Assembly (NCBI RefSeq): GCF_037042905.1
Contig: NC_087250.1
Span: 22,136,001-22,200,000 of the forward strand
Source: Lytechinus pictus
Taxonomy: Eukaryota
Length of the DNA stretch: 64,000 nt
Direction of reading: 5' to 3'
Below are positions 1-52,071 of the stretch, piece after piece. A model generated the notes under the pieces. The model searched no databases, was not told the DNA's origin, and was given only the letters and a program-made list of their open reading frames with translations. Position 1 is the stretch's first letter; each line of letters starts with the position of its first letter. Position numbers and translations under genes: made by a program.

Positions 1-2530
1 GTGGGTTATTAATGATAATAATGAGACATCACAAAAAAAGAAAGACAGAAATAAATATATAATTGATTATATAAAAAGACTGACCTTATGGATGCCAAAA
101 AAAAACCATTAGCACTAATTTTACAAAGAAGTTTTAACGCAGCAGTTATTTTTTTTTTGAATATTTTTCTTATTAAAATTATCACTTGTTTCAAAGAAAC
201 ATTGCCCTATTAAATATATGTTTGTTAAGATTGATGAACCGACATTTTGTAACTAGAATATAATTTAGAAACTAAATAAACGCGTCGTATTTCAGTCAAA
301 CGTAAGAGATGAAGTCTGTTTTTAAAATTCTGACATAAATTCTGGCGGACCAGAATTAAAGTTTTACATGGTCCAATATTTTACTTATACACTCTATCCC
401 TGGATTGCCACGAAGATCCATGATTTATAGATAACATCATTCTTGGTTCAAATATTACACATTACCATTCAATTCATAGCTTTGAAGTGAAAACAAATTG
501 GAGAAAATAAAGAATATTCTTACACCGCTCGAGGAAACCTAAAAATGTTGCTTCATAAATTCAGATTACCCATGGTATTTCAACATCAGCAAACAAACTC
601 TCTTTATGAATTAATGATCAATAATTCCACCCTCTCTCCACCTCTTCCTTCGCGCGATCTCTCTCTCTCTTTCACTCTTAGATAAGTTAAAAATTATTAT
701 TTTATTATTATCATCGTTAATATCATTATTATCATCATTTGTTATCATTATTATTGTTACTATTATTATTTATTTATATTATTATTCATTATTATCATTG
801 CTTGTTACTATTCATCATTATTATTATTATTATTTACTATCATCATTATTATAGTTGCTGTTGCTAATATTATTATTATTATATTCATTATTATTATTAT
901 AACTGATATATTATTGTTTTTGTTATTCAATATCAATACATTCAGTGAAAAAATGTATGTATTTCAATTTGCTTGATTTGAAACTTTATTTAGTATACTA
1001 GACATGCCTAGTAACTTGTTGGTTATTTTTCATAATGAGACAACACAAAAAATAAAGACAGAAATAAGTATATAATCGATTATATAATCACCAACAGATC
1101 TAGATGCTAAAATACCTAATCACCAATTTCACAGAGTAGTTTTAAAGCATCGTTTTCTTCTTTTAATATCGTTTTTAATAGAAATATTACTTGTTTGAAA
1201 GAATATTGCCCGATTGAATATATATTTCAGTAAAGATCAATGGACCTAATTTTTTTTAACTAGAATATAATATAGAAATTAAATAAACGTATCGCATTTC
1301 GATGTAAACAGTTCAGCGGCTTTAGGTTGTATTATAAAAGCACTTTTGGCAGACCAGAAACAAAAGTTCACATGTTCCAATGTTGTACACTTATGTCCCC
1401 TCCGATCCCCTGGAATGATACGAGAATCCATGAGTTAAAGATAACATTAATCCTTGGTTCAAACACTACAAAATACCATTCAATTCATAGCTATGATGTG
1501 AACACCAACTGGAGAAAATAAGAAACATTGGTACTCCGTTCCAGGAAACCTGAAAATTGCTTCAGATCTCACCCACATTGTTTCAAAATCGCCTAAATAA
1601 ACTCTGTTTACGAATAATGATTCATATTTCCACCCTCTCCCCCTCTCTTATACAAGTTAAAGATCATTATTATTATTATTTTATTATCATTATTATTAGT
1701 AGGAGTAGTATTATAATTGTTATGATTTTCATTATTATTATTATTATTATTATCTATTACATTATTATTTTTATTTATTCATGTCATTATTCATTATTAC
1801 TATTACTTGATACTATTTATTATTATCGTCATTTATTATTATTAAAATAATTATTTGTTATTATTAGTATTATTATTGCTATTTTTATTGCTGCTGTTGT
1901 TGTTGCTGTTGTTATTTCATAGCAATGCATTGCAGTGAAGCTATGTATTGCAATTCGCTTGAGTTGAAGCAGTATGTAGTGTATGAGACATGCCTTGTTT
2001 CTGTGATTTATTTATCATAACAATGAGACAACACACAAAATAAAGACAGAAATATGTATATAATCGATTATGTAATTTTCGACACCCTTATAATAATAAT
2101 ATTGTACTTATATAGCGCATAATATTCGTGATCTCTATGCGCTTAACAAATGAATTATTTATTACATAAGAAATCAAGCGAATGGATATTAAAATACCTA
2201 AGCACTAATTTCAGAAAGTAGTTTTAAAGTATCATCTTCTTTTCTTTAAATATCTTTTTTAAACAGAAAAATCACTTGTTTTAAAGAAATATTGCCATAT
2301 TAAATAAATTATTGTAAAGATTGATGGACCGACATTTTGTAACTAAAATATAGTTTAGAAACTAATACATATATAATATTTCGGTTTCGACCAGGTGATT
2401 ATAAATTTTGACATAAATTTTGGCGGACCAGTTTAAAGGTTTACATTGTATAATGTTGTACTCTAACATTCTATCTATCCCTGGAATGCCACGAAGATCC
2501 ATGATTTAGATATAACATCATTCTTGATTC

Positions 2531-2812
2531 CACTAGCGTACCTACGGGGGGGGGGGGGGGGCAGGGGGGCAGTCTGCCCCCCCTGATGAGTCCCAACCCA
2601 TGCAAAGTACGTATCCCTGCCCCCCTGACGAGCTTGAAAGACCTTTTTTGCTCCACCTGACGAGCTTGAAGACCTTTTTTTTTCTGGTACGAAATCCTAT
2701 ATTTGTGATTGAAGACCTTTTTTTTTTTTTTTTTTTTTTTTTTTGCTTGTCAAATTTTTTGGCGGACGGTTTTGCCCCCCCCCCCCTGTGGAAAATCCTA
2801 GGTACGCCACTG
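2531..2812. mobile_element. hAT-type MITE inserted in array unit 3
   Basis: Imperfect TIRs CACTAGCGTACCTA / TAGGTACGCCACTG; exact 8-bp TSD CTTGATTC at 2523-2530 and 2813-2820. Confidence 0.85.
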
Positions 2813-3777
2813 CTTGATTCAAATATTACACATTACCATTCAATTAATAGCTTTGATGTGAAAACAAATTGGAAAAAATGAATATTCCTACACCGCTCGG
2901 GAAACATAAAAATTTTGCTTTATAAATTCAGATTACCCATGGTATTTCAACATCACCAAACAAACTCTCTTTACGAATTAATGATCAATAATTGCACCAT
3001 CTCCCCACCTCTTCCTTCGCGCTCTCTCTCTCTCTCTCTCTCTCACTCTTAGATTAGTAAAAATTATTATTATCATCATTAAGGTCATTATTATTATTAT
3101 TTCTTATCATTATTATTGTTACTATTAGTATTTATTCATATTATTATTTATTATTACTATTACTGATTACTATTCATTAATATTAGTATTTACTATTATC
3201 ATTATTGTAGTTTTTGTTGCTGTTATTATTATTATTATTATCTTCATTATTATGATTACAACTGATATTATTATTGCTTTTGTTATTTAATATCAATACA
3301 TTCAGTGAAAAAAAATATATGTATTTCAATTTGCTTGAGTTGAAACTTGATGTAGTGTACTAGACATGCCTAGTGACTTGTGGGTTATTCATCATAATGA
3401 GACAACACACAAAATAAAAACAGAAATAAGTATATAATCGATTATGTAATTTTAGAAATTCTTATGGATAATGAAATACCTATGCACTAATTTCACAAGG
3501 TATTTTTAAAGCATCGTCTTCTTTGTATATATATTTTTTTTTTTCATAGAAATGTTACTTGTTACATAGAAATATCACCCAAATTAATATATTTTAGTAA
3601 AAACCATTAGACCAACAAATTTTAACTAGAATATAATTTGGAAAATAAAAAGTAAACTTGCATTTCGATGAAGATTGATAATTCTTGTGTTAAAAAATTG
3701 AAATAAAATTTTGGCGGACCAGAAACAAATGTTTATTTACATGGTCCAACGTTGTACTTTGACATTTAAATCTACTA

Positions 3778-6659
3778 CGGAGCCCCTAAGTTGACATGTC
3801 ATTATATTACTTTCGTAAGTCGTTCCCTCGACTTATTAACTCGTTACCACGACTTATAACTCGTTCCCTCGACTTACTAACTCGTTCCCTCGACTTACTA
3901 ACTCGTTCCCACGACTTACTAACTCGTTCCCTCGACTTGAATGCGCAGCAGACCGGCAGGAAGTTGGTTGGATATTCAGGTTCGATATTCAAACGCCTGT
4001 GAAGCTGGACCAATATTCGATATTCGATATTCAAAAATTAGGGGTTTTGAAAGCTAACTAGGGGGTTTAACAGGTGCAGCAAGTCTCGGGCAACCATAAA
4101 AACACTGGCTTGCCCAAATACGAGGACATTTAGGGGACAAACGTCAGTGAATAAAAGGGCATGACATTTTTTTTTTCGAGGGGCCCCCAGGGATTTCCCG
4201 ACGGCCTAGCCGGGGTAATGACGTATCCTAACTTGTAGAACTTTACTTGGGCAATCAGATAAACACTAGCATGACCCGGCGCATGCACATTTAGGGGGCA
4301 ACTCGGTAAAGCATCTCATGAGCAGATCTTATTCATCTATTATACTCAGTCCTAATTCCTCCACCACTAAAATAGTTCCGAAAGAGTGATACATGTATTT
4401 TTCTTTTATTCGCACAAAATATGTTCAGTGGTTGCCCATTCTTTGTTTCTAGAATCAGTCTAATCATTATACATACTCTTTTTTGTAATCAGCTTACAAC
4501 AAAAAATGAGAATGGGTTGGGTCGAATGAATATTTTCAGCCGTCTGTTGTATAGATCGTAATTTCTTGGAAAAAAAAGATGGGGGCGTATAACGATAGAA
4601 AACGTATTGTCAAAACATAAAATATGAGTATAAAGCTCCTATAATCTTCGAATGATTCTCAGGAGACTTTTTTTTTTGCATGTGTAGCCTTCAATTCAAT
4701 TAATCAACAACGAGTTATACCCCTACAAAATAAACGTTTCATAAACTAAAATGTCTCTTTTAGACGATATCGCGTGACTAATTTCAAAGCTATTGATTGA
4801 TTGATTGATTGATCGGCTAAATTTCCAAAGCGACTATAACATAATAAGAATTTAATTTCAAAATCATTTTTAAAGGCCAAAATTTTCTGGCTCGCTTCGC
4901 TCGCTGGCGACTTTTACAAATTTTTCCACATTTGCTATGTTGTGCTGCCTCAACATATTTCGTTTATTATCCGCAACTGCGTTGAACTTAATATAATATG
5001 CGGTGTATTTACCCGCAATTTGAAAAAAAAATGGCCATCTGCAATGTTTAAAAATATCACGAGGTTCCGGGGGCTCCGCCCCAGACCAGTGGTGGCACCA
5101 AAGGAGGAGGCCCCAGTGAGTTTCCCCCCTAAAAATTTTGGGGAAAAAATGTAAAGTGATTTCTCGAAAACTGTTTTTTGTTCTTTAAATTTTGAAAATG
5201 TTCTCATCCATTCACCGTAAACATTTAGCTCCCAACAATTTTGGTCACTAACATAAATCTTTGAGGTCATTATATAATATTCAAAATGTCGCTCGTGCTA
5301 CGCGCTCGCAGTTACTAATAATGGAGATAAGTAAATTATTTGTTCACATTGGGCTTAAAATCCAATGTTATTAGAGTTTTCATTATTCGTTTTAGCGAGA
5401 TACATATCCTACATATTCATAATTTTCATAAATGAAATATTTTCAGCGAATTAGATAGCCATTCAGTTCATGATTACAAAAAGTGCTTAGAACGTCCAGG
5501 TATCATCCCCGGATTTCAAAACTTTTCGCAATATAAATACCCTATATTATTATTATTATAGCACTGATCCCCCCAAAAAAGTTATACAACCGAGAACAAA
5601 AAAGAAATGATAAAAGGAAAGAAAGATGAAAGATATGATGTCATTTTTTGCATACCATTTTTTTTTCTCGCTCGCTCGAGACTTATTATTAAGCAAATTT
5701 TTGCTGCATGTGCCATGGTGTGCCCCCTCTTTTTGTTCTTATCACGCATTGAGCTTCGCCCTAATGCTCGGGGCACAATCATAAAACATCCTGTTCATAC
5801 AATGATATGACCCCTCCGTTCTCCCTTCTCTTTCTCTCCCGTCCCCCTCCTTTTCTTTCCTATCTCTCCCTTTCGCTTCTCTCTCTTCTATTTTGTATTC
5901 TCTCTTTCCTTGTTTTTTTTTACTCTACCCACTGGCGGCACCAAGAGATAGGGGAAAAGTCAGGATTTTCCTTTAATTTTGTTAATTTGAGCCCCCTAAA
6001 TGTTCATGCGCCGGGTCAAGCTAGTGTTTATCTCGTTGCCCGAGTCGAGTTCTACAAGTTAGGATACGTGGTTACCCCGGCTAGGCCGTCGGGATATCCC
6101 TGGGGGCCCCTCGGAAAAAAAAAAAAAAAAAAATGTCATGCCCTTTTATTCACTGACGTTTGTCCCCTAAATGTCCTCGTACTTGGGCAAGCCAGTGTTT
6201 TTATGGTTGTCCGAGACTTGCTGCACCTGTTTAACCCCCTAGTTAGCTTTCAAAACCCCTAATTTCTGAATATCGAATATCGAATATTGGTCCAGCTTCA
6301 CAGGCGTTTGAATATCAAACCTAAATATCCAACCAACTTCCTGCCGGTCTGCTGCGCATTCAAGTTGAGGAAACGAGTTAGTAAGTCGTGGGAACGAGTA
6401 ACAAACTTACAAGTCGAGGGAACGAGTTAGTAAGTCGTGGGAACGAGTTAGTAGGTCGTGGGAACGAGTTACAAACTTACAAGTCGAGGGAACGAGTTAG
6501 TAAATCGTGGGAACGAGTTATAAGTCGAGGGAACGAGTTATCAGTCGAGGGAACGAGTTATAAGTCGTGGTAACGAGTTAGTAAGTCGTGGTTACGAGTT
6601 AGTAAGTCGAGGGAACGACTTACGAAAAAAAATAATGACATGTCACCTTAGGGGCTCCG
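3778..6659. mobile_element. Non-autonomous long-TIR DNA transposon, copy 1
   Basis: Ends TA|CGGAGCCCCTAAG ... CTTAGGGGCTCCG|TA; ~500-650 bp inverted arms with tandem ~19-nt subrepeats AACTCGTTCCCTCGACTTA; no transposase ORF. Confidence 0.85.
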
Positions 6660-6809
6660 TAAGGCTCCGTACTTTGATGTGAAAACAAATGGAAGAAAAT
6701 GAGGAACATTGGTACTCCGTTTCAGGAAACCTAACAATTGCTTCAGATCACCCACATTGTTTCAACATCGCTTAAACAAACTCTGTTACGAATAATGATC
6801 CATATTTGC

Positions 6810-6850
<41 letters not shown>

Positions 6851-9800
6851 TCTCCCCCCTCTCTTAAAAGTAAAAAATCAATATTGTTATCATATTACTA
6901 TTATTATAAACATTATCATTAATATTATTATTATCATCATTATTATTAATACATACTTATTATCATTATTATCATCATTAATATCATTTTTATTATTATT
7001 TCTTATCATTATTATTGTTACTATTATTATATCTTTATATTATTATTCATTATTACTATTGCTTATTACTATTTATTATCATTATTTACTATTATCATCA
7101 TTATAGTTGTTGTGGCTGTTATTATTATCTTCATCATTATTATTACAACTGATATTATTGTTTTTTTTATAGCAATATTGCCCGAAATTGTATTTCAGTA
7201 AAGATCAATACTCCAAAATTATTTAAGTAGAATATAATTCAGAAACTAAATAAACCTATTGTATTTCGGTGTGTGTTGCTGTTGCTATTTTGGGTTTTAT
7301 TTTGAAAAAAAAAAAATTTGCGGGCCAGAAACAAAGTTTTACATGGTCCAATGTTGGACTCTTATATCCCCTTTCCTGGATTGTCAGTAGGATCCATGTA
7401 CTAAAGATAATAAAAATGAGACAGTACACAAAATAAAGACAGAAATAAGTATATAATCGATTATATACTCATCGACAAACCTTATGGATGCTAAAATACC
7501 TAAGCATTAATTTTACAAAGTAGTTTTAACGCATCATCTTTTTTTCTTTAAACATTTTTTTTAACGAAAATTTTATTTGCTTCAAAGAAATATAGCCATA
7601 TTAAATAGATTATTGTAAAAATTGATGGACCGACATTTTGTAACTAGGATATAACTTAGAAACTAAATAAGCGTATTGTATTTGGGTTTCAGCAAGTAAA
7701 TGACTTTTAAAGTCTGTAAACATAAAGTTTGGCGGACCAGAATTAAAGTTTTACATGATCCAATATTGTATTCTTATATCCTATCCCCTGGATTGCTACG
7801 AAGATCCATGATTTACCGATGACATCATCCTTGGTTCAACTGTTACACATTACCATTCAATTCATAGCTTTGATGTGAAAATAAATTGGAGAAAATAAAG
7901 AATATTCCTACACCGTTCGGGGAACCCTAAAAATGTTGCTTCATAAATTCAGATTACCCATGGTATTTCAACATCAGCAAACAAACTCTCTTTACGAATT
8001 AATGATCAATAATTGCACCCTCTCTCTCCCCCTCTTCCTTCGCGTGCTCTCTCTCTCTCTCTCACTCACACTTAGATTAGTTAAAAATTATTATTATCAT
8101 CAATATCATTATTATTATAATTTCTTATCATTATTATTGTTACTATTATTATCTATTCATATCATTTTTCATTATTACTATTACTGATTACTATTCATTA
8201 TTATTATTAATATTTACTATTATCATTATTGTAGTTGTTGCTGTTATTATTATTATTTTCATTACTATTATTACAACTGATATTAGTATTGTTTTGTTAC
8301 TTTATAGCAATACATTAAGTGAAAAAATATATGTATTTCAATTTGCTGGAGTAAAACTTTACGTAGTGTACTAGACATGCCTAGTGACCTGGGTTTTTTT
8401 ATCGTAATGAGACAGGTAAAAAAAATAAAGACAGAAATAAGTATATAATTTTAATTGATTGATTGGCCGATATGGCCTTTTATATGATAAAACAATATTT
8501 ACAAATATTATACAGAGGCAAAGGGATAAAAAAGCAAAATACAATTTTAGAGATAACAATTACAACAAATGAAAGCACAACATACATGTACCGGATGCAG
8601 GGGACCAGCGAAGGCCGAAGGCCTATCAAGGCTAGTCCCCGAACATAGCAATAAATAAAGTATAAACCAATACAAAAAAAGGGCAAAAAACAATCGATTA
8701 TATAAAAACCAACAGAACATATGGCAGCTGAATACCTAAACACCAATTTCACAAAGTGATTTCAAACAATCGTCTTCTTTGATTTTAATATCTTTTTTGA
8801 AACTTCTTTTTCAATAAAAATTTTACTTGTTCTAAAGAAATATCACCCGAATAAATACATTTCAGCAAAGATCAATTGACCCAAAAAAATTTAACTAGAA
8901 TATAATTTATAAACAAAATAAATATAATGTATTTCGGTACCAACAGAATTGAATTAGAAAACATTTATTAAACAATTTTGGCGGACCAGAAGTAATGTTT
9001 TACAAGGTCCAATATCTTACTCTTACATCTTATCCCCTGGATTACCTCGAAGATCTATGATGATGTAAAGATAACATCATTCTTGATTCAAATATTACAC
9101 ATTTAGCATTCAATTCATAGCTTTGATGTTAAAAGAAACTGGAGAAAATAGAGAATATTCCTACACCGTTCGGGGAAACCTAAATATTGCTTCATAAATT
9201 CAGGTTGTTCATGGTATTTCAACATCACCAAACAAACTCTCTTTACGAATTAATGATCAATAATTGCACCCTCTCTCCACCTCTTCCTTCGCGCGCGCTC
9301 TCTCTCCCCCCCCCCCCTCTCTCTCTCTGTCTCTCACTCTTAGGTTAGTTTAAAATTATTATCATCATTAATATCGTTATTATTATTCCTTATCATCATT
9401 ATTGTTTCTATTATTTATTTATTTATATTATTATTCATTATTTCTATTACTATTCATTATTATTAGTATTTATTATCATCATTGTAGTTTTTGTTGCTGT
9501 AAATATTATCATTATCTTCATAATCATTATTACAACTGATATTAGTATTGTTTTTGTTATTTCATAGCAATAAATTCAGTGAAAAAATATATATGCAGTT
9601 CAATTTGCTTGAGTTGAAACTTGATGTAGTGTACTAGACATGCCTAGTGACTTGTAGGTTATTTAACATGATGAGACAAGACACAAACTAAAGACAGAAA
9701 TAAGTATATAATCGATTAAGTATACACTAACAAACATTATGGATGCTAAAATACCTAAGCGCAAACTTCACAAAGTAATTTTAAAGCATCGTCTTCCTTT

Positions 9801-10462
9801 ACTTTAATATCTTTGAAATAAAATTAAATAAAATGTTATATGTTTCAAAGAAATATCGACCGAATAAACATATATTTTAGTAAAAATCAATACACCAAAA
9901 TATCTTAACTAGAATAGATTTTAAAAAGTAAATTAACTAATTGTATTTCGGTTTCTCATCGCTACTTTTGAATTTACTTTTTTTGTTGAAACAATTTTGG
10001 CGGACCAGAAATAATGTTTCATAAGGTCCAATTTTATATTCTTGAATTCTATCCCCTGGCTGGATTACCATGAAGATCCACTATTTAGAGATAACATCAA
10101 TTTTGTTCAAATACTACATATTAACAACCATAGCTTTGATGTGAAAACAAATTGTAGATAATAAAGAATATCCCTACACCGCTCGGGAAAACCTAAAAAT
10201 GTTGCTTCAGAAATTCAGATTACCAATGGTATTCCAACATCACCAAACCCTCTTTACGAATTAATGACCAATAATTGCAACGGGGAGCTCCCCCTCTTCC
10301 TTCGCATGCGCGCTCTCTCTCTCTCTCACTCTTAGATTAGTTCAAAACTGTTATTATCATTATTAATATCATTATTATTATTATTATTTATTTTCATTAT
10401 TATTGTTACTATTATTTATTTATCTATATTATTATTCATTATCACTATTACTTAATACTATA

Positions 10463-10629
10463 GGCGTTGTGGCGTGCGCCTGTAATCCAAGCTTTGTGCG
10501 GAAGTAACAAAGTGATGCAGAGCTTCGAGCCCTGGTCACGTCTTTCGGATGGTGACGTTAAAGGTCCGTCCCAGACGTAAATAATCATATCTAATTGACA
10601 CACGTCTGACAAAACTTAAATACACACAC
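10463..10629 (+). mobile_element. SINE with 7SL-like head, copy 1
   Basis: GGCGTTGTGGCGTGCGCCTGTAATCCAAGCT head, degenerate B box, (CA)n tail; near-identical to three other copies. Confidence 0.85.
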
Positions 10630-12073
10630 TATTCATTATTATTTACTATTATCATTATTACAGATCTTGCTGTTATTATTATCTTCATTACCATTATTAC
10701 AACTGATATTAGCATGGTTATTGCTATTTTGTAGCAATACATTCAGTGAGAAAATATATGTAATTCAATTTGCTTAAGTTGAAACGTCATGTAGTGTACT
10801 AGACATGCCTAGTGACTTGTAAGTTATTTACTATAATGAGACAACACAAAAAATAAAAACAGAAATAAGTATATAATCGATTATGTATACAATAACAAAC
10901 ATTATGGATGCTAAAACACCTAAGCACAAATTCCACAAAGTAATTTTAAAGCATCGTCTTCCTTTACCTTAATATCTTTTTAAAAAATTAATAAAAATGT
11001 CGTATGTTTTAAAGAAATATCGACCGAATAAACATTTATTTTAGAAAAATCAATTCACCAAAATATTTAACTAGAATAAATTTTAGAAATTAAATAAACT
11101 GATTGAATGTCGCGTTATCACTATGATACATTTTTACCTTTTTTAAAAACAATTTTAGCGGACCAGAAATAATGTTTCACATGGTCCAACATTATATTCT
11201 TACATCCTACCCCTGGATAGCCATGAAGATCCACTATGAAGAGATAACATCATTCTTGCTTCAAATACTACATATAACCATGCCTAGTGAATCATGAGAT
11301 ATTTATCATAAGGAGACCAAAAAAATAATAAAGACAGAAATTATATAATCGATCATATAAAACCTAACAGACCAAGAGGACACTAAAATACCTAAGCACC
11401 AATTTTACAAAGTAATTTTAAAGCATCGTCTTCCATTTTAAAATATTTTTTAAATATTTTTTAATAGCAATTATACTTGTTATGTTTTCAGAAATGTCAC
11501 CCAAATAAATATATTTTAGTAAAAATCTTTAGACCAAATTTTTTTAACTAGAATATATCTTAGAAAGTAAAATTATTATTGTATTTTTGTATTTAACGTT
11601 GTTATCAATTTATAATATATATCTTATTACAATTTTGGCGGATCAGAAACAATGTTTCACTTGGTCCATTACTTCACTCCTACAGCTTATCCCCTTGATT
11701 GCCACGAAGATCCAAGTTCTAGAGATAACATCATTCTTGGTTCAAATATTACACATTGCCATTTAACTCATTGCTCTGATGTAAAAGCAAATTGGAGAAA
11801 ATAAAGAGTATTCCGTCACCTTTCGGGGAAACTCAAAAATTGCTTCAGAAGTTCAGATAATCCATGGTATTTCAACAACACCAAACAAACTCTCTTTACG
11901 AATTAATGATCAATAATTCTCTTCCTTCGCGCTGTCTCTCTCACGCTTAGATTAGTTGAAATTATTACCAATATTATCATCATTAATATCATTATTATTT
12001 CTTATCATTATTATTGTTAGTATTATCATTTATTTATGATATTTATTATAACAATTACTTATTATTACAACTA

Positions 12074-12248
12074 GGCGTTGTGGCGTGCGCCTGTAATCCA
12101 AGCTATGTGGGGAAGTTACGAAGTGATGCAGAGGTTCGAGCCCTGGTCACGTCTTCCGTATGGTGACATTAAAGGTCGGTCCCAGACGTAAATAATCATA
12201 TCTGATTGATACACGTCTGACAAAACACATAATACACACACACACACA
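12074..12248 (+). mobile_element. SINE with 7SL-like head, copy 2
   Basis: Same sequence with B box GGTTCGAGCCC; same position in the unit as copy 1, so probably co-duplicated with the unit. Confidence 0.85.
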
Positions 12249-12924
12249 AACTATTCATTTTATTGTTTACTATTATCATTACTATAGATGTTACTGTTAT
12301 AATTATTATCTTCATTACTATTATTATAACTTGTATTAGTATTGTATTTATTATTTTCTAGCAATACATTCAGTGAGAAAATATATGTATTCCAATTTGC
12401 TTGAGTTGAAACTTCGTGTAGTGTACTAGACATGCCTAGTGACTTGTGGGTTATTTATCATAATGAGGACAACAACAAAATAAAGACAGAAATAAATATA
12501 TAATCGATTATATAAACAGCAACGGACGCTATGGATGCTAAATACCTAGGCACCAATTTCACAAAGTAATTTTAGAGCATCGTCTTCTTCTATTTTAATA
12601 TTTGTTTTAAATATTTTTTTTTCGATTGGAAAGGTTACTTGTTTCAAAGAAGAACTGCCCGAATAAATATATCTTAGTAAAGATCAATAGACAAAAAATT
12701 ATAACTAGAATATAATTTAAAAGCTTAAAAGTATAGTATTTTGGTACACTTATTGCTTAATTTATGCTCTAACTTATTTATAAACACAATTTTGGCGGAC
12801 CAGAGATGTTATACATGGTCCAATATTTATATTCTTACATCTCATCCCCTAGCTTTTAACTAGAATATAAATTTGAAATAAAATAAACCTATCGTATTTC
12901 GGTACATAGGCGCCTACATTAGTT

Positions 12925-13095
12925 GCTGGGCGTTGTGGCGTGCGCCTGTAATCCAAGCTATGTGGGGAAGTTACAAATTGATGCAGAGGTTCGAGCCCTG
13001 GTCACGTCTTTCGGATGGTGACGTTAAAGGTCGGTCCCAGACGTAAATAATCATTTCTGATTGATACACGTCTGACAAAAAACTCAAATACACAC
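12925..13095 (+). mobile_element. SINE with 7SL-like head, copy 3 (full 5' end), inside the variable window of unit 12
   Basis: GCTGGGCGTTGTGGCGTGCGCCTGTAATCC...GGTTCGAGCCC...TACACAC lies between GTATTTC and AGTTTTGGCGGACCAG. Confidence 0.85.
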
Positions 13096-17359: not shown

Positions 17360-17818
17360 ATCAGACCAAAGAACAGACCTCCAAAACGTTTCATCCTTTC
17401 CCAGATGTCTTCTGGCAAAGTCCAAACGTGATCATGTGTGGTTGGGTTTTAGGAGAGGAGTCTTCCGTGGCCGTCGTCCATTCAATCCTGCCTTATTCAA
17501 GGTCCTCTGGATGGTTTGCCTCGAGACCTTGGTCCCTTGGCCATTGAGATCTTTCAGCATCTCCTTTGTGGTGATTCTGGGGTTGACAGCAGCAGCTCGA
17601 ACTAAACATCTCGCTTGCCTTGCAGAGACTTTGGGCTTCCGTCCAGGTCTTTTAAGGTTCTCCACTTTGTTAAAAGTCTTGAGCTTCCTGATGATGCTCT
17701 GGACAGTAGCCACATGAACCTCAAAACGCTTGGATATTGCCTTGTAGCCCAAACCATCTTTGTGAGCATTCACTATTTGTGATCTCAGATCGTCACTAAG
17801 TTCCTTTCGCTTGACCAT
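17360..17818 (-). pseudogene. Tc1 transposase N-terminal part
   Basis: MVKRKELSDDLRSQIV...GYKAISKRF...RPGRKPK...GRRPRKTPLL, then a stop, then FARRHL...FWRSVLWSD. It continues as (SD)EMKMELF at ~14459-14485 on the far side of the LINE; the rest of the DDE domain is deleted. Confidence 0.9.
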
Positions 17819-20349
17819 GATGAAGTTTAAGCCGATTCCGATGAATTGACAAATATCTTGCCACTGATTCTCAATTTATAGAACCACTAAAGTTTCTGGA
17901 ATTCAAAGACTTTGATTTTCTCAACAAAATTTCATTTCAAAAAGGCAAAACGCCCCCCTCCCCCAATCTTTAATTGAATTGATTTTTAATCAATTTCATC
18001 AACATGGCAACTAACATCTGGACAAACCTCAGAAAATTGAAGATTTCTGAGATCTAAGGAACTTCCTCTTTCTGGATACCATGCAACATGGCTTAAATTC
18101 TTTTGTATTCATGTCTGGCATTATAGGGTCCAGCTTGAAACCATATGGGGGTAGTAAAATATTTGAACTATGAAATATATGGTGTCTTATAATTGAGAAA
18201 GACAGGGGTATGAATACTTTTGAACATTAGAAAATTCAGAAAAGTCATCTTCTCTATTATTATGCAAATGAGATGAAAATAAAATCAGCATGCTTTTGTA
18301 GATAATGTCTATTAGTATATAACTACTATGCAAGTTATCCAAGTTCTGCTTTCATTTTTATGAAAAGTGCAAAAAACACATATTTTCCTAGGGGTATGAA
18401 TACTTCTGACCACAACTGTAGCTTTGATGTGAAAACAAGTTGAAGAAAATAAAGAATATCCCTACACCGTTCGGGGAAACCTAAAAATGTTGCTTCAGAA
18501 ATTCAGATTACTAATGGTATTTCAACATCACCAAACAAACTCTATTTACGAATTAATTATCAATAATTGCACCCTCTCTCCCCCCTCTTCCTTCGCGCGC
18601 GCGCTCTCTCTCTCTCTCACTCTTAGATTAGTTAAAAAGTATTATTATTATCAATAATATCAATATTATTATCATTTCTTATCATTACTATTGTTACTTA
18701 TTTTTATTTATTTATATTATTTTTTATTATAACTATTACTGATTGCTATTCATAATTATAAGTTTTTACTATTATCATTATTGTAGTTTTAGTGGCTATT
18801 ATTATTATTATAATTATCTTCATTATTATTTTTACAACTGATTTTATTATTGTTTTTGTTATTGTATAGCAATACATTCAGTGAGGAAATATATGTATTT
18901 CATTATGCTTGAGTTTATAAAGAAAGAAATGAGTATATAATCGATCATAAAATCACCAATAGACCTTATGGATGCTAAAATACCTAAGCACCAATTTCAC
19001 TAAGTAGTTTTAAAGCATCGTCTTTTCTATTTAAATGTCTCTTTTTTACTATAATTTTTAATGGAACTTTTACTTGTTCCAAAGAAATACGGTCCGAATA
19101 AATATATTTTAGTAAAGATAAATACACCAAAAAAAAATAACTAGAATAGAATTTAGAAATTGAATAAACCAATTGTATTTCAGAACGTAGCGTTGGCTAT
19201 ATATTAGTGTTTGTTCTTGAAAAGAAAAATTGACGGACCAAGAATGTTTTACATGATCCAATATTTTACTCTTAAATTCTATCCTCTGGATTGCCACAAA
19301 GATTGATTATTTAGTGATAACATCATTCTTGATTCAAATACTACATATTACCATTCAATTTATTGCTTTCATGTGAAAACAAATTGGAGAAAATAAAGAA
19401 TATCCCTACACCGTTCGGGGAAACCTGAAAATGTTGCTCCATAAATTCAGATTACCCATGGTATTTCAACATCACCAAACGAACTTTCTTTACGAATTAA
19501 TGATCAATAATTGCACCCTCTCTCCCCCTCTTCCTTCGCGCGATCCCTCTCTCTCTCACTCTTAGATTAATTAAAAATTATTATTGTCATCATTTATATC
19601 ATTATTATTATTTCTTATCATTATTATTGTTACTATTAGTATTTATTCATATTATTATTTATTATTACTATTACTGATTACTATTCATTAATATTAGTAT
19701 TTACTATTATCATTATTGTAGTTTTTGTTGCTTTTATTACTATTATTATTATCTTCATTATTATGATTACAACTGATATTATCATTGCTTTTGTTATTTT
19801 ATAGCAATACATTCAGTGAAAAAAAAATATATGTATTTCAATTTGCTTGAGTTGAAACTTTATGTAGTGTACTAGACATGCCTAGTCACTTGTGGGTTAT
19901 TCATCATAATGAGACAACACACAAAATAAAGACAGAAATAAGTATATAATCGATTATGTAATTTTCAAAACTCTTATGGATAATAAAATACCTATGCACT
20001 AATTTCACCAAGTATTTTTAAAGCATCGTCTTTTTTCTATATATATTTTTTTTTTTAATAGAAATGTTACTTGTTCCATAGAAATATCACCCCAATTAAT
20101 ATATTTTAGTAAAAACCATTAGACCAACAAATTTTAACTAGAATATAATTTGAAAAAAAAATAATCATATAGTATTTCGATGGTAATAATGTTAGTTTTC
20201 TATATTTAAATTAGACTTATAATTTTGGCGGACCAGAAAGATTTACTTCCATGGTCCAATGTTGTACTCTTACATTCTATCATTGTGCGGAGCCCGTATG
20301 GTGACATGTCATTATTTCAAATTACAAGTCGTTCCCTCGACTTACTTGC

Positions 20350-21880
20350 CACATTTCGCAATAACGATTGGTGTATTTTTAGACTTATCTAAAGCATTCG
20401 ATTGTATAGACCATAATATTTTAATTGATAAGCTATCATCATACGGGTTTAGAGGGACAGTATTGAAGTGGTTAATCAGTTACTTAAGAAATCGAAAACA
20501 ATGTGTATGCATCAACAAAATTCATTCAGACTTTCAGGACATTAGAGTAGGGGTACCCCAGGGGTCTAACCTAGGCCCTCTTCTTTTTATATTGTACATC
20601 AATGACCTGCAACATGTAAGTAATATTTTAACTACTACCTTATTTGCAGACGATACAAGTTTATTTTTATCTGGTAAGGATCCCATTCAATTAAATAATA
20701 TTTTAAATTCTGAAATGGAAAAAGTTCACATGTGGTTCCAAGCCAACAGACTACAAATTAACACTAAGAAGACATCTTTTATGATTTTTAAGCCTAAAAA
20801 TAAGAAAATTGAAGAAAACTCAATAAAATTATATATAAATGATTTTGAAATTCAGAAAGTGCAATATACGAAATTCCTAGGTGTCACAATTGACGATAGC
20901 ATGAGTTGGAAACAACATGTAAATAATATTTCTATGAAGATTTCTCAAACCATTGGTGTACTTAATAGAATCAAAGGTGACTTACCATTGCATATTCGTG
21001 TTCAATTATACAATACAATGATACTCACGCATCTCAGCTATTGCAATATCGTATGGGGGGACTGTGCAAATTATTTAAAGCTACAATTATTTCGCTTACA
21101 AAAACGGGCAATAAGAATAATAACAAATTCCCCATATTTAGCTCACTCTCATCAATTATTCCGTAAATTAAAGATTCTAAAAATTTATGATATACATACC
21201 CTTCACACTGCAATTTTTATGTTTTCATACTACAAGAATCAGTTGCCTGACACATTTAACAGTTATTTTAAAACAAATCGCAGTGTAAACAAATATAATA
21301 CGAGAAATTCTGATAATTTATACATTCCTTTTTACCGCTTTTCTTTCTCAAGAACCGTCATAAGTTATAGTGGACCACTCATATGGAACAGTTTGCCCCC
21401 TGAAATAAAAGAAAGTCCTTCGCTAAATTCATTTAAAGTAAGATTTAAGTCTTACCTTCTAAATATGTATACTTCACCATGTTCTCAGTGAATAAGCTTG
21501 CTTGCTTTTATGTGTATGTTTTTTAAACATATTTTTTTGTAATGTAGTTGTTATTTTTTTTCTTCAAAATTTTCATTAGTTTGTTGATTTCGTTTATTTT
21601 GAAATGTGTGTTTCTTGCAATCTAATCAATTGATTGCAGGATGGTCTTTTTTCGGGAATGAATGTTAATCAGGGAGTAGCCTAGATAGGTCTATTTGGCT
21701 TTTGCTATCCCCCCACATCGCATTCATTACCCTATGTATTTTGTTATTTTTGTTAATTTGTCATTTTACTATATTCATTACTCCTTTACTCCTTTACTAT
21801 GGAATCATTTTGATTGATCTCGATATATTGTATCTTGTATGTTTTTTACAGATGTGAAATAAATGAATTTGAATTTGAAT
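20350..21880 (+). mobile_element. 5'-truncated CR1/L2-group LINE (open RT C-terminal half, 3' UTR, tail)
   Basis: IGVFLDLSKAFDCIDH, GVPQGSNLGPLLF, FADDT, KFLGV; open to the stop at 21491; AATAAA plus (TGAATT)n tail at ~21858-21880. Confidence 0.93.
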
Positions 21881-22495
21881 CCCCACGGACGCTAATATGA
21901 GGGTCCCCTAACACAAAAGTTGACGCTTAATCATTCACTTGATTTTTAAGATTGATTCTACATTATAGTCAATGCAATCAAACGTAGAAAACTGCTCTAC
22001 AATCAATGCTAAGATTTGTGTTTGGTTACAGGGGGGTTACAGGCCCCACAGATCTGCTTTTCGTGTGCAAAATTCTTTCCCGCGACACCCGCGCGCCATA
22101 CATGCATGTATTACGACTGATGGCTGGAGATATTCGAAATGCAGGACCTAAAATAGAATATGACATGGATAAGAAAGTGGTTTTTCAAACAAGTCGAGTA
22201 CATATTGAGCGAGGAAAAACTTACTAAATTAAGGCTTAGATATAGATCATTACAGTCCATCGAATCGATATTGCATTTAATGTGGATTATTGGTGGATGA
22301 CTGGCAATTGATTCCATGGGTCAGATCACCTCTCCAGCCGAACCCATTTCGCATATGTACACAGCGTATGCAATACGTTTGAAAATGCGGGTTTCTTTTG
22401 TTCACTCCTTCTACACAAACGATACGCCTCTAGCACACGATGTAAAGGGTATTATGTTTTACTTTCCTCAGAAATGGGGGGTTAGATTCAAATTT

Positions 22496-22795
22496 CGGGG
22501 GGACCACTTCCATTGATGAGTGGATATCAGGCACGACCATGGGGTTTCGAAAAGTACCCTGAACAAGGGAAGCAAGTCTTTTCCAGATTATGAAAATGCA
22601 TTTTTTAACAATTATTTGGCTTGTGAAACCCTACAAGTATTGGAAGTATGTCCCTTTTTTCAGTATTTTAATCATCGTTTTTGACACCTTTATAACGTTA
22701 CATAGGCCTATACGTAACGTACTTACCTGACTCTTTCCCTTTTTACGCGTTGTTGCGCCTGGTATCCACTCTTCAATGAAAGTGGGCCCCCTGGG
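22496..22795. mobile_element. MITE
   Basis: ~40-bp imperfect TIR GGGGGGACCACTTCCATTGATGAGTGGATATCAGGC / GCCTGGTATCCACTCTTCAATGAAAGTGGGCCCCC. Confidence 0.7.
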
Positions 22796-25700
22796 CGGCC
22801 TCTCGAGCTCTGGGAGGAACCAAATGTGGATTTAGAAAGTCGTCCTAAATCGGATATATCGCTGTTACCATAGTAGCAACCAGAATTTTGCACACGAAAC
22901 GCAAATTGAATGTTTCCGTTCAAGATGCGAAACGAAAAAAAAATCTCATGTCACACAATTTGCATTGCAGGACAGAGTTTTAAGACCATGACGACGGGCC
23001 CAAAAGTCTCTTCCAAATTCAACTAACGTCGTAAATAAGCGTTCGCGTTCTTCCAACGAAAGGTCTGGACTAACTCGTTACCACGACTTATAGCTCGTTC
23101 CCTCGACTTACTAACTCGTTCCCACGACTTACTAACTCGTTCCCTTGACTTGAATGCGCAGCAGCCCGGCAGGAAGTTGGTTGGATATTCAGGTTCGATA
23201 TTCAAACGCCTGTGAAGCTGGACCAATATTCGATATTCGATATTAAAAAAATAGGGGTTTTGAAAGCTAACTAGGGGGTTTAACAGGTGCAGCAAGTATC
23301 GGGCAACCATAAAAACACTGGCTTGCCCAAATACGAGGACATTTAGGGGACAAACGTCAGTGAATAAAAGGGCATGACATTTTTATTTTGTGATTTTTTT
23401 TCGAGGGGTCCCCAGGGATATCCCGACGGCCTAGCCGGGGTAATAACGTATCCTAACTTGTAGAACTTTACTTGGGCAATCAGATAAACACTCGCATGAC
23501 CCGGCGCATGCACATTTAGGGGGCAACTCGGTAAAGCATATCATGAGCAGATCTTATTCATCTATTATACTCAGTCCTAATTCCTCCACCACTAAAATAG
23601 TTCCGAAAGAGTGATACATGTATTTTTCTTTCATTCGCACAAAATATGTTCAGTGGTTGCCCATTCTTTGTTTCTAGAATCAGTCTAATCATTATACATA
23701 CTCTTTTTTGTAATCAGCTTACAAAAGAAAATTAGAATGGGTTGGGTTGAATGAATATCTTCAGCCGTCTGTTGTATAGATCGTAATTTCTTGGAAAAAA
23801 GATGGGGGCGTATAACGATAGAAAACGTATTGTCAAAACATACAATTTGAGTATAAAGCTCCTATAATCTTCGAATGATTCTTAGGAGACATTTTCTTTT
23901 GCATGTGTAGCCTTCAATTCAATTAATCAACAAGGAGTTATACCCCTACAAAATAAACGTTTCATGAACTAAAATGTCTCTTTTAGACGATATCGCGTGA
24001 CTAATTTCAAAGCTATTGATTGATTGATTGATTGATCGGCTAAATTTCCAAAGCGACTATAACATAATAAGAATTTAATTTCAAAATCATTTTTAAAGGC
24101 CAAAATTTTCTGGCTCGCTTCGCTCGCTGGCGACTTTTACAAATTTTTCCACATTTGCTATGTTGTGCTGCCTCAACATATTTCGTTTATTATCCGCAAC
24201 TGCGTTGAACTTAATATAATATGTGGTGTATTCACCCGCAATTTGATTTTAAAAAATGGCCATCTGCAATGTTTAAAAACATCACGTGGTTCCGGGGGCT
24301 CCGCCCCAGACCAGTGGCGGCACCAAAGGAGGAGGCCCCAGTGAGTTCCCCCCCCTGAAATTTTGGGGAAAAAAAATGTAAAGTAATTTCTCGAAAAATA
24401 TTTTTTGTTCTTTAAATTTTGAAAATTTCCTCATCCATTCACCGTTAGCATTAAGCTCCCAACAATTTTGGTCACTAACAAATCTTTGAGGTCATTATAT
24501 AATATTCAAAATGTCGCTCGCGCTACGTGCTCGCAGTTACTAATAATGGAGATAAGTAAATTATTTGTTCACATGGGGCTTAATAATCCAATGTTATTAG
24601 AGTTTTCATTATTCGTTTTAGCGAGATACATATCCTGCGTATTCATAATTTTCATTAATGAAATATTTTCAGCGAATTAGATAGCAATTCAGTTCATGAT
24701 TACAAAAAGTGCTTAGAACGTCCAGGTATCATCCCCGGATATCAAAACTTTTCGGCTCGCGCTTCGCGCTCGCATTATTCATTTGGTGAGATATCATCTT
24801 CATGGACCAATTAATGCAAACAGCTAGTCCTTGACAGGTCCCTTTTCAAGTCAGTATAGGGACTATACATTTGAAATAAAATTAGCTCGCGCTTCTCACT
24901 CTGTTTTAAAAAAATTGTGTGTCACCCCCCCCCCCCCGGCCCCAAAATGTTATTTTGCCTCCTCATAGGTTAAAAACTATGGTGCCGTCTTTGCCACGGA
25001 CCCGATCCGCATAGCACTGATCCCCCCAAAAAAATTATACAACCGAGAACAAATTAAAAAGAAATGATAAAAGGAAAGAAAGATGAAAGATATGATGTCA
25101 TTTTTTGCATACCATTTTTTTTCTCGCTCGCTCGAGACTTATTATTAAGCAAATTTTTGCTGCATGCGCCATGGTGTGCCCCTCTTTTTGTTCTTATCAC
25201 GCATTGAGCTTCGCCCTAATGCTCGGGGCACAATCATAAAACATCCTGTTCATACAATGATATGACCCCTCCGTACTCCCTTCTCTTTCTCTCCCGTTCC
25301 CACTCCTTTTCTTTCCTATCTCTCCATTTCGCTTCTCTCTCTTCTATTTTGTATTCTCTCTTTCCTTTTTTTGTTTTACTATACCCACTGGCGGCACCAA
25401 GGGATGGGGGAAAAGTCAGGACCGTGGTTCCCCATGCTTGAAATAGCCCTTTATTCCTTTAATTTTGTTAATTTGAGCCCCCTAAATGTTCATGCGCCGG
25501 GTCAAGCTAGTGTTTATCTGGTTGCCCGAGTCGAGTTCTACAAGTTAGGATACGTGGTTACCCCGGCTAGGCCGTCGGGATATCCCTGGGGGCCCCTCGA
25601 AAAAAAATCAAAAAGTAAAAATGTCATGTCCTTTTATTCACTGACGTTTGTCCCCTAAATGTCCTCGTACTTGGGCAAGCCAGTGTTTTTATGGTTGTCC

Positions 25701-27160
25701 GAGACTTGCAGCTGCACCTGTTTATCCCCCTAGTTAGCTTTCAAAACCCCTAATTTTTTAATATCGAATATCGAATGTTGGTCCAGCTTCACAGGCGTTT
25801 GAATATCGAACCTGAATATCCAACCAACTTCCTGCTGGTCTGCTGCGCATTCAAGTCGAGGGAACGAGTTAGTAAGTCGTGGGAACGAGTTACAAACTTA
25901 CAAGTCGAGGGAACGAGTTAGTAAATCGTGGGAACGAGTTATAAGTCGTGGGAACGAGTTAGTAAGTCGAGGGAACGAGTTAATAAGTCGAGGGAACGAG
26001 TTAATAAGTCGAGGGAACGAGTTAATAAGTCGAGGGAACGAGTTATAAGTCGAGGGAACGAGTTATAAGTCGTGGTAATGAGTTAGTAAGTCGAGGGAAC
26101 GACTTACGAAAACAAAAATGACATGTCACCTTAAAGGCTCTGTACTTTGATGTGAAAATGAGGAACATTGGTACTCCGTTCCAGGAAATGTGAAAATTGC
26201 TTTAGATCACCCACATTGTTTCAACATCGCTTAAACAAACTCTGTTACGAATAATGATCCATATTTGCCCCCCCCCCTCTCTCTCTCTCTCTCACTCTCT
26301 CTTCCTCTCCCCCTGTCTTAAAAGTAAAAAATCAATATTGTTATCATATTACTATTATTATAAACATTATTATAATATTATTATTATTATTATCATTATT
26401 ATTAATATCATACTTATTATCATTATTATCATCATTAATATCATTCTTATTATTATTTCTTATCATTATTCGTGTTACTATTATTATAAATTTATATTAT
26501 TATTCATTATTACTATTACTTATTACTATTCATTATCATTAGTATTTACTATTATCATTATTATAGTTGTTGTTGCTGTTATTATTATTATCTTCATTAT
26601 TATGATTATAACTGATATTATTATTGTTTTTGTTATTTTATAGCAATATATCCAGTGAAAAAAATATATGTATTTCAATTTGCTTGAGTTGAAACTTTAT
26701 GTAGTGTACAATGCATGCCTAGTGACCTGGGGTTATTTACCACAATGAGACAGGTAACAAAATAAAGACAGAAGTACATAATCGATTATGTAATTTTCGA
26801 CCCTCTTATGGATAATGATATACCGAGGCACTAATTTCACAAAGTAGTTTTGAAGCATCGTTTCCTTTTACTTAATATATTTTATCATGAAAATATGACT
26901 TGTTTCAAAGAAATATTGCCCGATTAAATATATTTTAGTAAAGATCAATAGACAAAAATTTTTAACTAGAATATAATTTAGAAACTAAATAAAACTATCG
27001 CATTTCGATAAACAAAGAGTTGCGGAATTTGGTTATATGTTGAAAATAATTTTGGCGGACCAGAAATAAAGTTGTACATGGTCTAATATTGTACACTTAC
27101 ATTCTAACCCCTAAATTGGCACGAAGATCCATGGTTTAGAGATAACATCATTCTTGATTC

Positions 27161-27572
27161 CAGCAGGACCGTTTTTTCTTCTTTACGTTCTACTTGTAAA
27201 TGCTCCATCAATTATATGTACATGTATATTTTTCTGTAACCCTGCCAGTAGGCCTACTCGTAATTACATGTAGCATCACTTCTAATAACCGCTTCCTTAC
27301 ACACACTCAACTTATCATTTCTCGTGTTTTGCAATCATTATTGTTCATTGAAATTATTACGGTTAATCGAAATTAGTATTGCAACTTAGAATCATTATTA
27401 TTGTAAACTTGAATTATCACTGGATATTTGAATTATTATGGTTAAATTGATATAAGATTATTATTGTAATTGAGATTGATTCATGTCTATGTGCAATTTA
27501 TATGTTTTTATTTGTAAACTCAACGGCAATTCAGCCTTCGTGGCTGCTACATTGAATAAATACATCTTGAAT
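27161..27572 (+). mobile_element. LINE 3'-end fragment in array unit 16
   Basis: CAGCCTTCGTGGCTG stem-loop, AATAAA and ATCTTGA-type tail; flanked by CTTGATTC at 27153-27160 and 27573-27580. Confidence 0.65.
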
Positions 27573-27779
27573 CTTGATTCAAATATTATATTTACCGTTC
27601 AATTCATAGCTTTGATGTGAAAACAAATTTGAGAAAATAAAGAATATTGGTACTCCGTTCCAGGAAACCTGAAAATTGCTTCAGATCTCACCCACATCGT
27701 TTCAACATCGCCTAAATAAACTCTGTTTACGAATAATGATCCATATTTTCACCCTCTTTCTCTCTTATACAAGTTAAAG

Positions 27780-27839
<60 letters not shown>

Positions 27840-27861
27840 GTTATTATTATTATTATTATTT

Positions 27862-27906
<45 letters not shown>

Positions 27907-28254
27907 ATTATTAGGTAAGGTAAATAGGGTATTCTCTGGTATCGATATAGCCTAGCATGGCAGGGTTACCTTGAGCATTTAACAAGTTGCTTTGTTCAAA
28001 AACATCTACATTGATATTCTTATTACTATTATTATTATTATAACTGTTGTTATTATTATTAGATTTTTATTACTATTATTATTATTAATATTATTATATT
28101 GTTGTTGTTGCTATTTCATAGCAATGCATTGCAGCGAACAAATATGTATTGCAATTCGCTTGAGTTGAAAGTACTAGACATGCCAGAATGGAAAAGTTTT
28201 ACATGGTCCAATGTTGGACTCTTATATCCCCTTTCCTGGATTGTCAGAATGATC

Positions 28255-28420
28255 GTGTATTTGAGTTTTGTCAGACGTGTATCAATCAGATATGATTATT
28301 TACGTCTGGGACCGACCTTTAACGTCACCATCCGAAAGACGTGACCAGGGCTCGAACCTCTGCATCAATTTGTAACTTCCCCGCATAGCTTGGATTACAG
28401 GCGCACGCCACAACGCCCAG
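28255..28420 (-). mobile_element. SINE with 7SL-like head, copy 4
   Basis: Reverse complement of 12926-13095. Confidence 0.85.
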
Positions 28421-28944
28421 TTCCATGAACTAAAGATGATAATAATGAGACAGTACACAAAATAAATAAAGTTAGTAAGTCGAGGGAACAAGTTATAAGT
28501 CGAGGGAACGAATTATAAGTCGTGGTAACGAGTTAGTAAGTCGAGGGAACGACTTACAAAAAAATAAAGACAGAAATAACTATATAATCGATCATCGACA
28601 AACCTTATGAATGCTTAAATATCTAAGCACTAATTTTACAAAGTAGTTGTAACGCATCATCTTCTTTTCTTTAAATATTATTTTAAACAAAAATATCACT
28701 TGTTTCAAAGAAATGTAGCCCTATCAAATGTATTATTGTAAAGATTGATGGACCGACATTTTGTAACTAGAATATAATTTAGAAACTAATATTTATATTG
28801 TATATCGGTTTCTAGGGCGGCGATATTTTTTTAATATTTTGACGTAAATTTTGGCGGACCAGTTTCAAAGGTTTACATGGTCCAATGATGTTGTACTCTT
28901 ACATCCCCTCCGATCCCCTGGAATGACACGAGGACCTATGAGCT

Positions 28945-30623: not shown

Positions 30624-30706
30624 AGAATGAGTACGAATACCTTCCTTACCATGAATCAACCATCCTTGGTTCAAATACCACATGTTACCATTCTCTTCAT
30701 AGCTCA

Positions 30707-52058: not shown

Positions 52059-52071
52059 GATAAGAAAAAAA

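Follow-up and report, generated by a model that had tools for sequence, protein, structure and literature searches.

Small nuclear RNA (snRNA) genes of the Sm class that are transcribed by RNA polymerase II, those of U1, U2, U4 and U5, are organised as multi-copy tandem genes, with a promoter box at a fixed distance, an Sm site and a hairpin 3' of that site (PMC2582628). U7 snRNA is a short RNA with an unstructured 5' part, an Sm-type site and one 3' hairpin, and clusters are reported in sea urchins (PMC5054213). Nematode genes for PIWI-interacting RNAs (piRNAs), the 21U loci, are many small units with a conserved upstream motif, a YRNT start, a unique 5' sequence and a high-to-low melting step; in some species they lie in introns, and their promoters derive from snRNA promoters (PMC6436959). 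Traits of all these systems meet in a locus of the sea urchin Lytechinus pictus. The window, by which we mean the whole stretch of 64,000 nt that was analysed (RefSeq assembly GCF_037042905.1, contig NC_087250.1, positions 22,136,001 to 22,200,000, forward strand), carries an intron array of 17 tandem units of ~1 kb with the layout of snRNA genes, each holding an Sm-like site followed by a hairpin (the Sm-hairpin module) and, 5' of it, a stretch of its own that we call the payload. Judged from its sequence, the array is a real and odd feature, intronic, built like Sm-class snRNA genes in its anatomy and measurably hypervariable in its 5' part.

Scanning the window with a model of the Sm-hairpin module returns the 17 units, two weak remnants (28170 and 30405) and nothing beyond 31 kb; as the same 17 units built the model, its independent information is confined to the remnants and to the blank after 31 kb. 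The array, from base 1 to about 31,200, extends past the coordinates, 2416 to 28882, given in an earlier note on this DNA. Over their longest matches its units share 70-87% identity with the first one, and copies compared as whole units, spacers included, are 70-93% alike. The predicted start (+1) is the purine after TTTC, a definition taken from the motif itself, and the unit split by a short interspersed element (SINE; 12901) and the edge unit (30365) are excluded from every rate and composition count. The parts of the array, all on the plus strand, are as follows.

1 to 31200, + strand: tandem array of 17 Sm-hairpin units and two remnants, broken up by transposon insertions; begins before the window
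251 to 374, + strand: unit; box 251, predicted +1 294, Sm variant AATTCTGG 338, stem end 374
1258 to 1378, + strand: unit; box 1258, +1 1301, Sm variant ACTTTTGG 1342, stem broken, likely decayed
2341 to 2451, + strand: unit; box 2341, +1 2383, short payload, Sm site 2416, stem broken, likely decayed
3624 to 3747, + strand: unit; box 3624, +1 3667, Sm site 3707, intact stem; forms a segmental duplication with the unit with +1 at 20179
7225 to 7349, + strand: unit; box 7225, +1 7268, Sm variant AAATTTGC 7314, stem intact with G-U
7642 to 7761, + strand: unit; box 7642, +1 7685, Sm variant AAGTTTGG 7725, stem mismatched
8893 to 9010, + strand: unit; box 8893, +1 8936, Sm site 8974, 5-bp stem
9907 to 10029, + strand: unit; box 9907, +1 9950, Sm site 9993, 5-bp stem
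11069 to 11187, + strand: unit; box 11069, +1 near 11112 (degenerate start motif), Sm variant AATTTTAG 11151, stem intact
11546 to 11667, + strand: unit; box 11546, +1 near 11588 (degenerate start motif), Sm site 11631, stem intact with U-G
12703 to 12821, + strand: unit; box 12703, +1 12743, Sm site 12788, stem intact
12858 to 13149, + strand: SINE-split unit; a SINE with a head like 7SL/signal recognition particle (SRP) RNA (about 12925-13096) splits the payload near +24, Sm variant AGTTTTGG 13113, stem intact
14076 to 14196, + strand: unit; box 14076, +1 14119, Sm site 14160, stem intact with G-U
19139 to 19259, + strand: unit; box 19139, +1 19182, Sm variant AAAATTGA 19226, stem mismatched
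20136 to 20257, + strand: unit; box 20136, +1 20179, Sm site 20221, stem intact; duplicate of the unit with +1 at 3667
26964 to 27084, + strand: unit; box 26964, +1 27007, Sm site 27048, stem intact with G-U
28170 to 28215, + strand: unit remnant; box, payload and Sm site lost, module model E 0.1
28765 to 28883, + strand: unit; box 28765, +1 28807, Sm site 28847, stem intact
30323 to 30465, + strand: edge unit, strongly diverged; retains the upstream box but has a decayed Sm site and stem, module model E 0.41

In the edge unit (30323-30465) the box is preserved letter for letter and the stem remnant has gained an outer A-U pair.

The layout of snRNA genes is read from a box at a fixed distance, a pyrimidine-purine start, the Sm consensus and the terminal hairpin. 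The box, AACTAGAATA, begins at -43 in 12 of the 16 units, at -42 in three and at -40 in one, and a TATA-like AT-rich stretch follows at about -35 to -27. Twelve of the 16 starts read Y-R-N-T, T stands at +3 in 14, and conservation stops straight after +3. The payload is 33-46 nt long. As the earlier note had reported, it ends at an exact AATTTTGG in 10 of the 17 units (2416, 3707, 8974, 9993, 11631, 12788, 14160, 20221, 27048 and 28847), and the five variants listed there are present (AATTCTGG at 338, ACTTTTGG at 1342, AGTTTTGG at 13113, AAGTTTGG at 7725 and AATTTTAG at 11151); we find two more, AAATTTGC at 7314 and AAAATTGA at 19226. The Sm consensus, RAU3-6GR (PMC2582628), is matched in 10 of the 16 units. 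Downstream, the pattern GGACCA-N10-22-TGGTCC occurs seven times against 0.02 expected. The 6-bp stem that the note ascribed to most units keeps all six pairs in 11 of 17 if G-U is counted and is perfect in only seven, and 92% of the helix cells are paired. When units are folded singly, 13 of 17 adopt this stem as their lowest-energy structure and leave the Sm-like site unpaired (z -1.5 to -3.2); the four others are those at 1342, 2416, 7725 and 19226, and a unit whose stem is broken is probably a dead copy. The alternative 8-bp hairpin AATTCTGG/CCAGAATT pointed out at 338-357 exists, and the main stem is still the lowest-energy fold of that unit; over the array the alternative TTTTGG/CCAGAA hairpin shows no covariation, 447 of 500 shuffles scoring as high. 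From +1 to the end of the stem the predicted RNA measures 75-82 nt in 15 of the 16 units, in line with the ~80 nt proposed earlier.

The payload is genuinely hypervariable and lies between slower islands. Identity between payloads is 0.56 (120 pairs), against 0.535 for shuffled payloads and 0.75 for the upstream spacer, below which it falls in 108 of the 120 pairs; in the downstream spacer identity is 0.83 (21 pairs of seven uninterrupted units). On a fixed tree with the spacer rate set to 1, the first 20 payload columns evolve at 6.7 and the remaining payload at 4.3, rates to be read with an uncertain alignment, near saturation and with sparse columns dropped; the box evolves at 0.42, the Sm block at 0.63, the stem at 0.57 and the loop at 1.4, and the flanks are raised, to 1.9 on the 5' side (-33..-10, p=8e-5) and 1.6 on the 3' side (p=0.007). 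The first 20 nt of the payload are the fastest-evolving (p=0.017). Sm site and stem together are slower than loop and 3' flank (p=5e-5) and slower than the spacer (p=0.01), and the stem is slower than its loop (p=0.005), p-values that are optimistic for the slow islands, the block borders having been set after the alignment was viewed. That Sm site and stem are slower than the loop suggests that the RNA reaches the hairpin. The clearest example is the pair of units with +1 at 3667 and 20179, segmental duplicates with a common inserted element (95.6% identity over 1.7 kb); here mismatches amount to 12/223 far upstream, 7/24 just upstream of +1, 17/37 in the payload and 3/39 in Sm site and hairpin (Fisher p=2e-9). 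Related payloads stay colinear, so that change appears to proceed mainly by point substitution, not by capture of foreign pieces. Read-through from the host gene is ruled out as the source of the fast change, because the spacers share the same intron. The rate peak lies over the predicted transcript and spills into both near flanks, as in heavily transcribed small-RNA genes (PMC6130373).

Payload folds are no more stable than those of shuffles (mean z +0.2 to +0.5), and payload halves pair no better than foreign halves, and we therefore regard the payload as single-stranded. A stem closing the payload, which had looked plausible in several units, was rejected on this ground, pairing with the own half equalling pairing with a foreign half (p 0.57-0.95). 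A micro-exon reading was likewise rejected; an acceptor-like CAG stands at the start in only two units, and donors are not enriched. The composition of the payload is stepped, GC being 0.375 at +4..+18 and 0.164 at +21..+35, and the first part exceeds the second in 15 of 16 units and falls below it in none; with close relatives thinned out, the excess is seen in 11 of 12; the borders of the step were chosen after the composition was seen, and the region is near saturation.

It is somewhat more probable than its opposite that some Sm RNA of this type is made from the array at all. More specifically, and tentatively, with less than even confidence, we favour the reading that the units are snRNA-type genes for RNA polymerase II that give ~80-nt Sm RNAs with diversifying 5' antisense guides. 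The antisense part of this reading comes from a payload whose 5' portion is unpaired and fastest-changing and in which the GC step is kept. Each unit would have its own RNA polymerase II promoter and yield a capped RNA of about 80 bases; the box at -43 would bind SNAPc, transcription would begin at the purine after TTTC, and the 3' end would form just after the stem. An Sm ring may assemble at AAUUUUGG in the manner of spliceosomal snRNAs. The first 20 or so bases, which are the GC-richer part, would pair with RNA targets and the AU-rich part would act as a linker, and diversification might mirror changing targets, aided by transcription-linked mutation. Broader still, and doubtful in our estimate, is a sea-urchin family of programmable Sm small nuclear ribonucleoproteins (snRNPs) that have promoter, Sm site and hairpin in common, each with its own fast-diversifying guide of ~20 nt and a YRNT start.

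Several observations weigh against antisense-guide Sm RNAs. The Sm sites of 7 of the 17 units are off consensus, and the RATTTTGG 8-mer is weak by itself: it occurs 28 times in the window, where 15.4 would be expected, and 18 of these copies lie outside units. The main stem is without covariation: 119 of 500 shuffles reach its score, and the 6-bp helix has no pair in which both sides have changed. Covariation is found in neither stem, and among the three tests named in the earlier note as refuting its model this one came out against it. The RNAalifold consensus is a weak alternative 4-bp hairpin (-1.36 kcal/mol) that would cover part of the Sm site, a result unfavourable to the main fold of the earlier note. 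The vertebrate-type 3' box, GTTTN0-3AAARNNAGA (PMC2582628), expected some 10 nt past the 3' end, is found near the stem in 0 of 17 units with up to two mismatches, and a perfect octamer upstream in 0 of 16; the single 3'-box match lies 55 nt away at a deletion junction, and the consensus may not apply to this lineage. Promoters of snRNA genes diverge between lineages (PMC1761439, whose accessible text gives no sea-urchin sequence). As to rates, besides the optimistic p-values of the slow islands, the Sm block alone is slower than the spacer without significance (p=0.14), the speed-up of the payload reaches significance in no more than five of eight close pairs, and in the pair 11112/14119 the payload is conserved like the flank (3/35 vs 22/221 mismatches), so fast change would be episodic or one copy converted. 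Raised rates in the near flanks also fit mutation without selection. Finally, signs of targets are wanting. Complements of splice, poly(A) and histone signals occur in payloads at chance in all eight motif tests, and 21-mers from the 17 payloads, searched against the rest of the 64-kb window, find best matches that are on average 0.2 base above those of shuffles; one payload of the 17 beats all 40 of its own shuffles in this very small search space. The variable-guide Sm RNA of the earlier note is thus borne out in part: box, start, Sm consensus in 10 of 17, hairpin, slow Sm site and stem and single-stranded payload speak for it, and covariation, U7 hallmarks, 3' box and target signal do not.

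Sm-class snRNA genes have a box at about -55 and their 5' part is the most conserved, whereas in the array the box lies at -43 and the 5' part is the fastest-evolving; they have a 5' stem-loop, which the payloads, folding like shuffles, are without; and the array differs from them further by the lack of an Rfam match and of a vertebrate-type 3' box. At the gathering score Rfam gives no match in the window, and at E up to 5 over positions 1-31,500 it gives only the SRP-like SINE heads, a palindromic insert and one chance match to a small nucleolar RNA, with no unit core among them. A search for transfer RNAs (tRNAs) found none, and a search for relatives with two patterns over metagenome contigs and one over viral contigs gave no match. 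The likeness to U7, which the earlier note had taken as its model, does not extend to identity, the hallmarks of U7, the deviant Sm site RUUUNUCYNG and the UCUUU box of its histone-binding 5' part (PMC5054213), being found in 0 of 16 units each; U7 snRNA measures 57-70 nt, against 75-82 nt for the array units, whose 5' part differs in every copy. The array units may work on a U7-like plan, not as U7 members. Other non-spliceosomal Sm RNAs, SmY of nematodes, the HSURs of herpesviruses and Like-U of Drosophila, would share with the array units a short RNA with an Sm site, a 3' hairpin and a 5' part that presumably pairs with other RNAs. The nearest layout would be that of a putative sequence-variable multi-copy snRNA family of zebrafish. 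The accessible parts of 10.1101/869651 and 10.1101/858944 contain no mention of such a zebrafish family, and in the literature searched, outside which most subscription papers lie, we found no description of a variable-guide Sm RNA family like this array.

Of the alternatives, the one that fares best keeps the transcript and drops the guide. We hold it possible, if on balance doubtful, that the units are transcribed Sm-class RNA genes whose 5' part, targetless and unconstrained, is scrambled by transcription-associated mutagenesis, selection or the spread of a selfish family keeping only promoter, Sm site and hairpin. Both near flanks are fast (1.9x and 1.6x), as expected of such a process and reminiscent of active tRNA genes, which mutate 7-10x faster with about 4x in the inner 5' flank (PMC6130373); primate snRNA genes of RNA polymerase II are hypermutable (bioRxiv 10.64898/2026.10.12.758683), and weakly folded nascent RNA, such as the unfolded payload, is linked to more mutation (PMC4691750). 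The lack of a target signal in splice, poly(A) and histone motifs and in window matches agrees with it as well. However, a position-specific GC step persists despite near-saturation, CpG is not depleted in the payload (observed/expected 1.4), and there is no excess of transitions (kappa 2.9 and 2.4 vs 2.5-3.5 in three of four spacer blocks, transition/transversion ratios being the whole of the evidence on mutation spectrum). Moreover, the effect at snRNA genes is tied to primate APOBEC3 and is much weaker in rodents and chicken (bioRxiv 10.64898/2026.10.12.758683).

The start region raises another alternative, which we judge unlikely, namely piRNA genes in the nematode style, where an snRNA-type promoter gives a short capped precursor and removal of two bases exposes the U at +3 of a 21-30-nt guide carried by Piwi; the short-precursor alternative of the earlier note stays alive in this form. 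A Y-R-N-T start in 12 of 16 units, T at +3 in 14, the end of conservation right after +3, the first 20 nt as the fastest-evolving part (p=0.017), and the drop from high to low GC in 15 of 16 units, resembling a pausing signal, are all as one would expect. Intronic position is likewise shared with Pristionchus-type loci, and in nematodes the promoters of piRNA genes have snRNA promoters as their ancestors (PMC6436959). Yet the array has a conserved Sm site and hairpin after the variable part, in ~1-kb tandem duplicates, and the accessible text of PMC6436959 describes no comparable downstream module at nematode loci. A slow Sm site and stem would be unneeded by a precursor of ~28 nt, unless they stabilise a longer precursor or remain from an snRNA ancestor. 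Per-position counts from -70 to -1 do not show the Ruby (GTTTC) upstream motif of nematode piRNA loci, to our knowledge the route from snRNA promoters to piRNAs is limited to nematodes, and a U near the start is usual for snRNAs too; all of these count against piRNA genes.

That the array is an untranscribed satellite or an old tandem duplication, with the payload a local patch of mutation or gene conversion and the Sm-like 8-mer and 6-bp stem chance features copied along with the unit, we consider improbable. Since the entire unit is 70-93% alike, a motif that arose once by chance in the ancestor would be seen in every copy; RATTTTGG is common in the window, neither stem covaries, and Rfam has no match at gathering score. 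Such an origin nevertheless leaves unexplained a patch changing 4-7x faster between slower islands at fixed distances, its kept length and its GC step, and the colinearity of related payloads points to substitution, not replacement. Very improbable is a set of genes for RNA polymerase III that are driven from an upstream promoter and whose transcript stops at the first run of at least four T, at or before the Sm-like site: the TATA-like AT-rich stretch, the purine start and the four T in the Sm-like site would suit them, but the position of the first T4 run varies between +2 and +48, one of 16 units has none, and the stem, lying beyond the terminator, is slower-evolving than its own loop. Spliced-leader RNA genes, with the AT-rich stretch before the payload as leader exon, GT at +2/+3 as donor and payload, Sm site and hairpin as intron part, are scarcely credible: GT followed by Sm site and hairpin, the layout of leader RNAs, is found in 9 of 16 units, but AT stands there in four units and other bases in three, the supposed exon (-33..-10) is 1.9x faster than the spacer, the donor-like GT(A/G)A(A/G) is not enriched (3/16 vs 3.1 expected), and we know of no leader trans-splicing in sea urchins.

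The window is AT-rich animal DNA with insertions of long interspersed elements (LINEs), Tc1-type elements and SINEs. The array is followed by the following exon.

31328 to 31440, + strand: internal exon, bounded by AG/GT, of the SLC6 host gene (sodium:neurotransmitter symporter); matches Pfam SNF at positions 325-365 with E 1.5e-15; marks the 3' end of the array-bearing intron

Counting this exon, five stretches with SLC6 SNF similarity stand in order on the plus strand, near 31.3, 39.1, 40.3, 42.9 and 43.6 kb, the last reaching 43.9 kb, in a scan of 134 of the 137 open reading frames (ORFs) listed from 31.3 to 48.2 kb, with 75 ORFs past 53.5 kb left out; an open frame at 44536-44883 may be the last exon. 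Given that an SNF exon lies right after the array and that none was found inside it among 58 unique plus-strand ORFs (of 91 candidates, the 33 within transposon bodies were not included), the array most likely fills a single SLC6 intron of more than 31 kb, in sense to the host gene, and the upstream SLC6 exons most likely lie beyond the window.

A number of mobile elements accompany the units. A SINE of ~170 nt is present in four copies (12925-13096, 12068-12240, about 10460-10630 and, on the minus strand, 28260-28421), one of them within a payload near +24, and the heads of two of the four match the Alu domain of SRP/7SL RNA (E 4e-4 and 2e-3). A composite element, which has inverted ends and carries subterminal repeats of 21 nt, lies at 3776-6660 and at 20290-26150, its copies at about the same unit position in the segmental duplicates, and the second also carries a LINE fragment (reverse transcriptase frame 20223-21491). 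At 14457-18420 a unit is interrupted by a nested insertion: a broken LINE on the plus strand (about 14.5-17.2 kb) and a fragment of a Tc1/Sleeping-Beauty-type transposase (17432-17875, minus strand). A pair of palindromic insertions of ~370 nt at 30475-30850 flanks a short piece of unit spacer and is the source of a spurious MIR859 match. A LINE at 48300-53500 on the minus strand is near full length, with an ORF1-like frame, endonuclease, reverse transcriptase and RNase H, its frames broken by frameshifts.

Engineered U7 RNAs demonstrate that RNA processing can be directed by an Sm scaffold once its 5' end has been exchanged, and of a natural repertoire of variable Sm guides we found no description in the literature searched. 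If the RNAs are made, the array would offer natural variable-guide snRNPs together with a direct test of the proposal that snRNA genes gave rise to single-gene piRNAs; if the reading is true, a deuterostome would possess either a guide repertoire modelled on U7 or the intermediate so far missing between snRNA genes and single-gene piRNAs of the nematode style. Under the weaker reading, a 40-base patch that changes 4-7x faster between slower islands would be a clean model of transcription-linked mutation in an invertebrate germ line.

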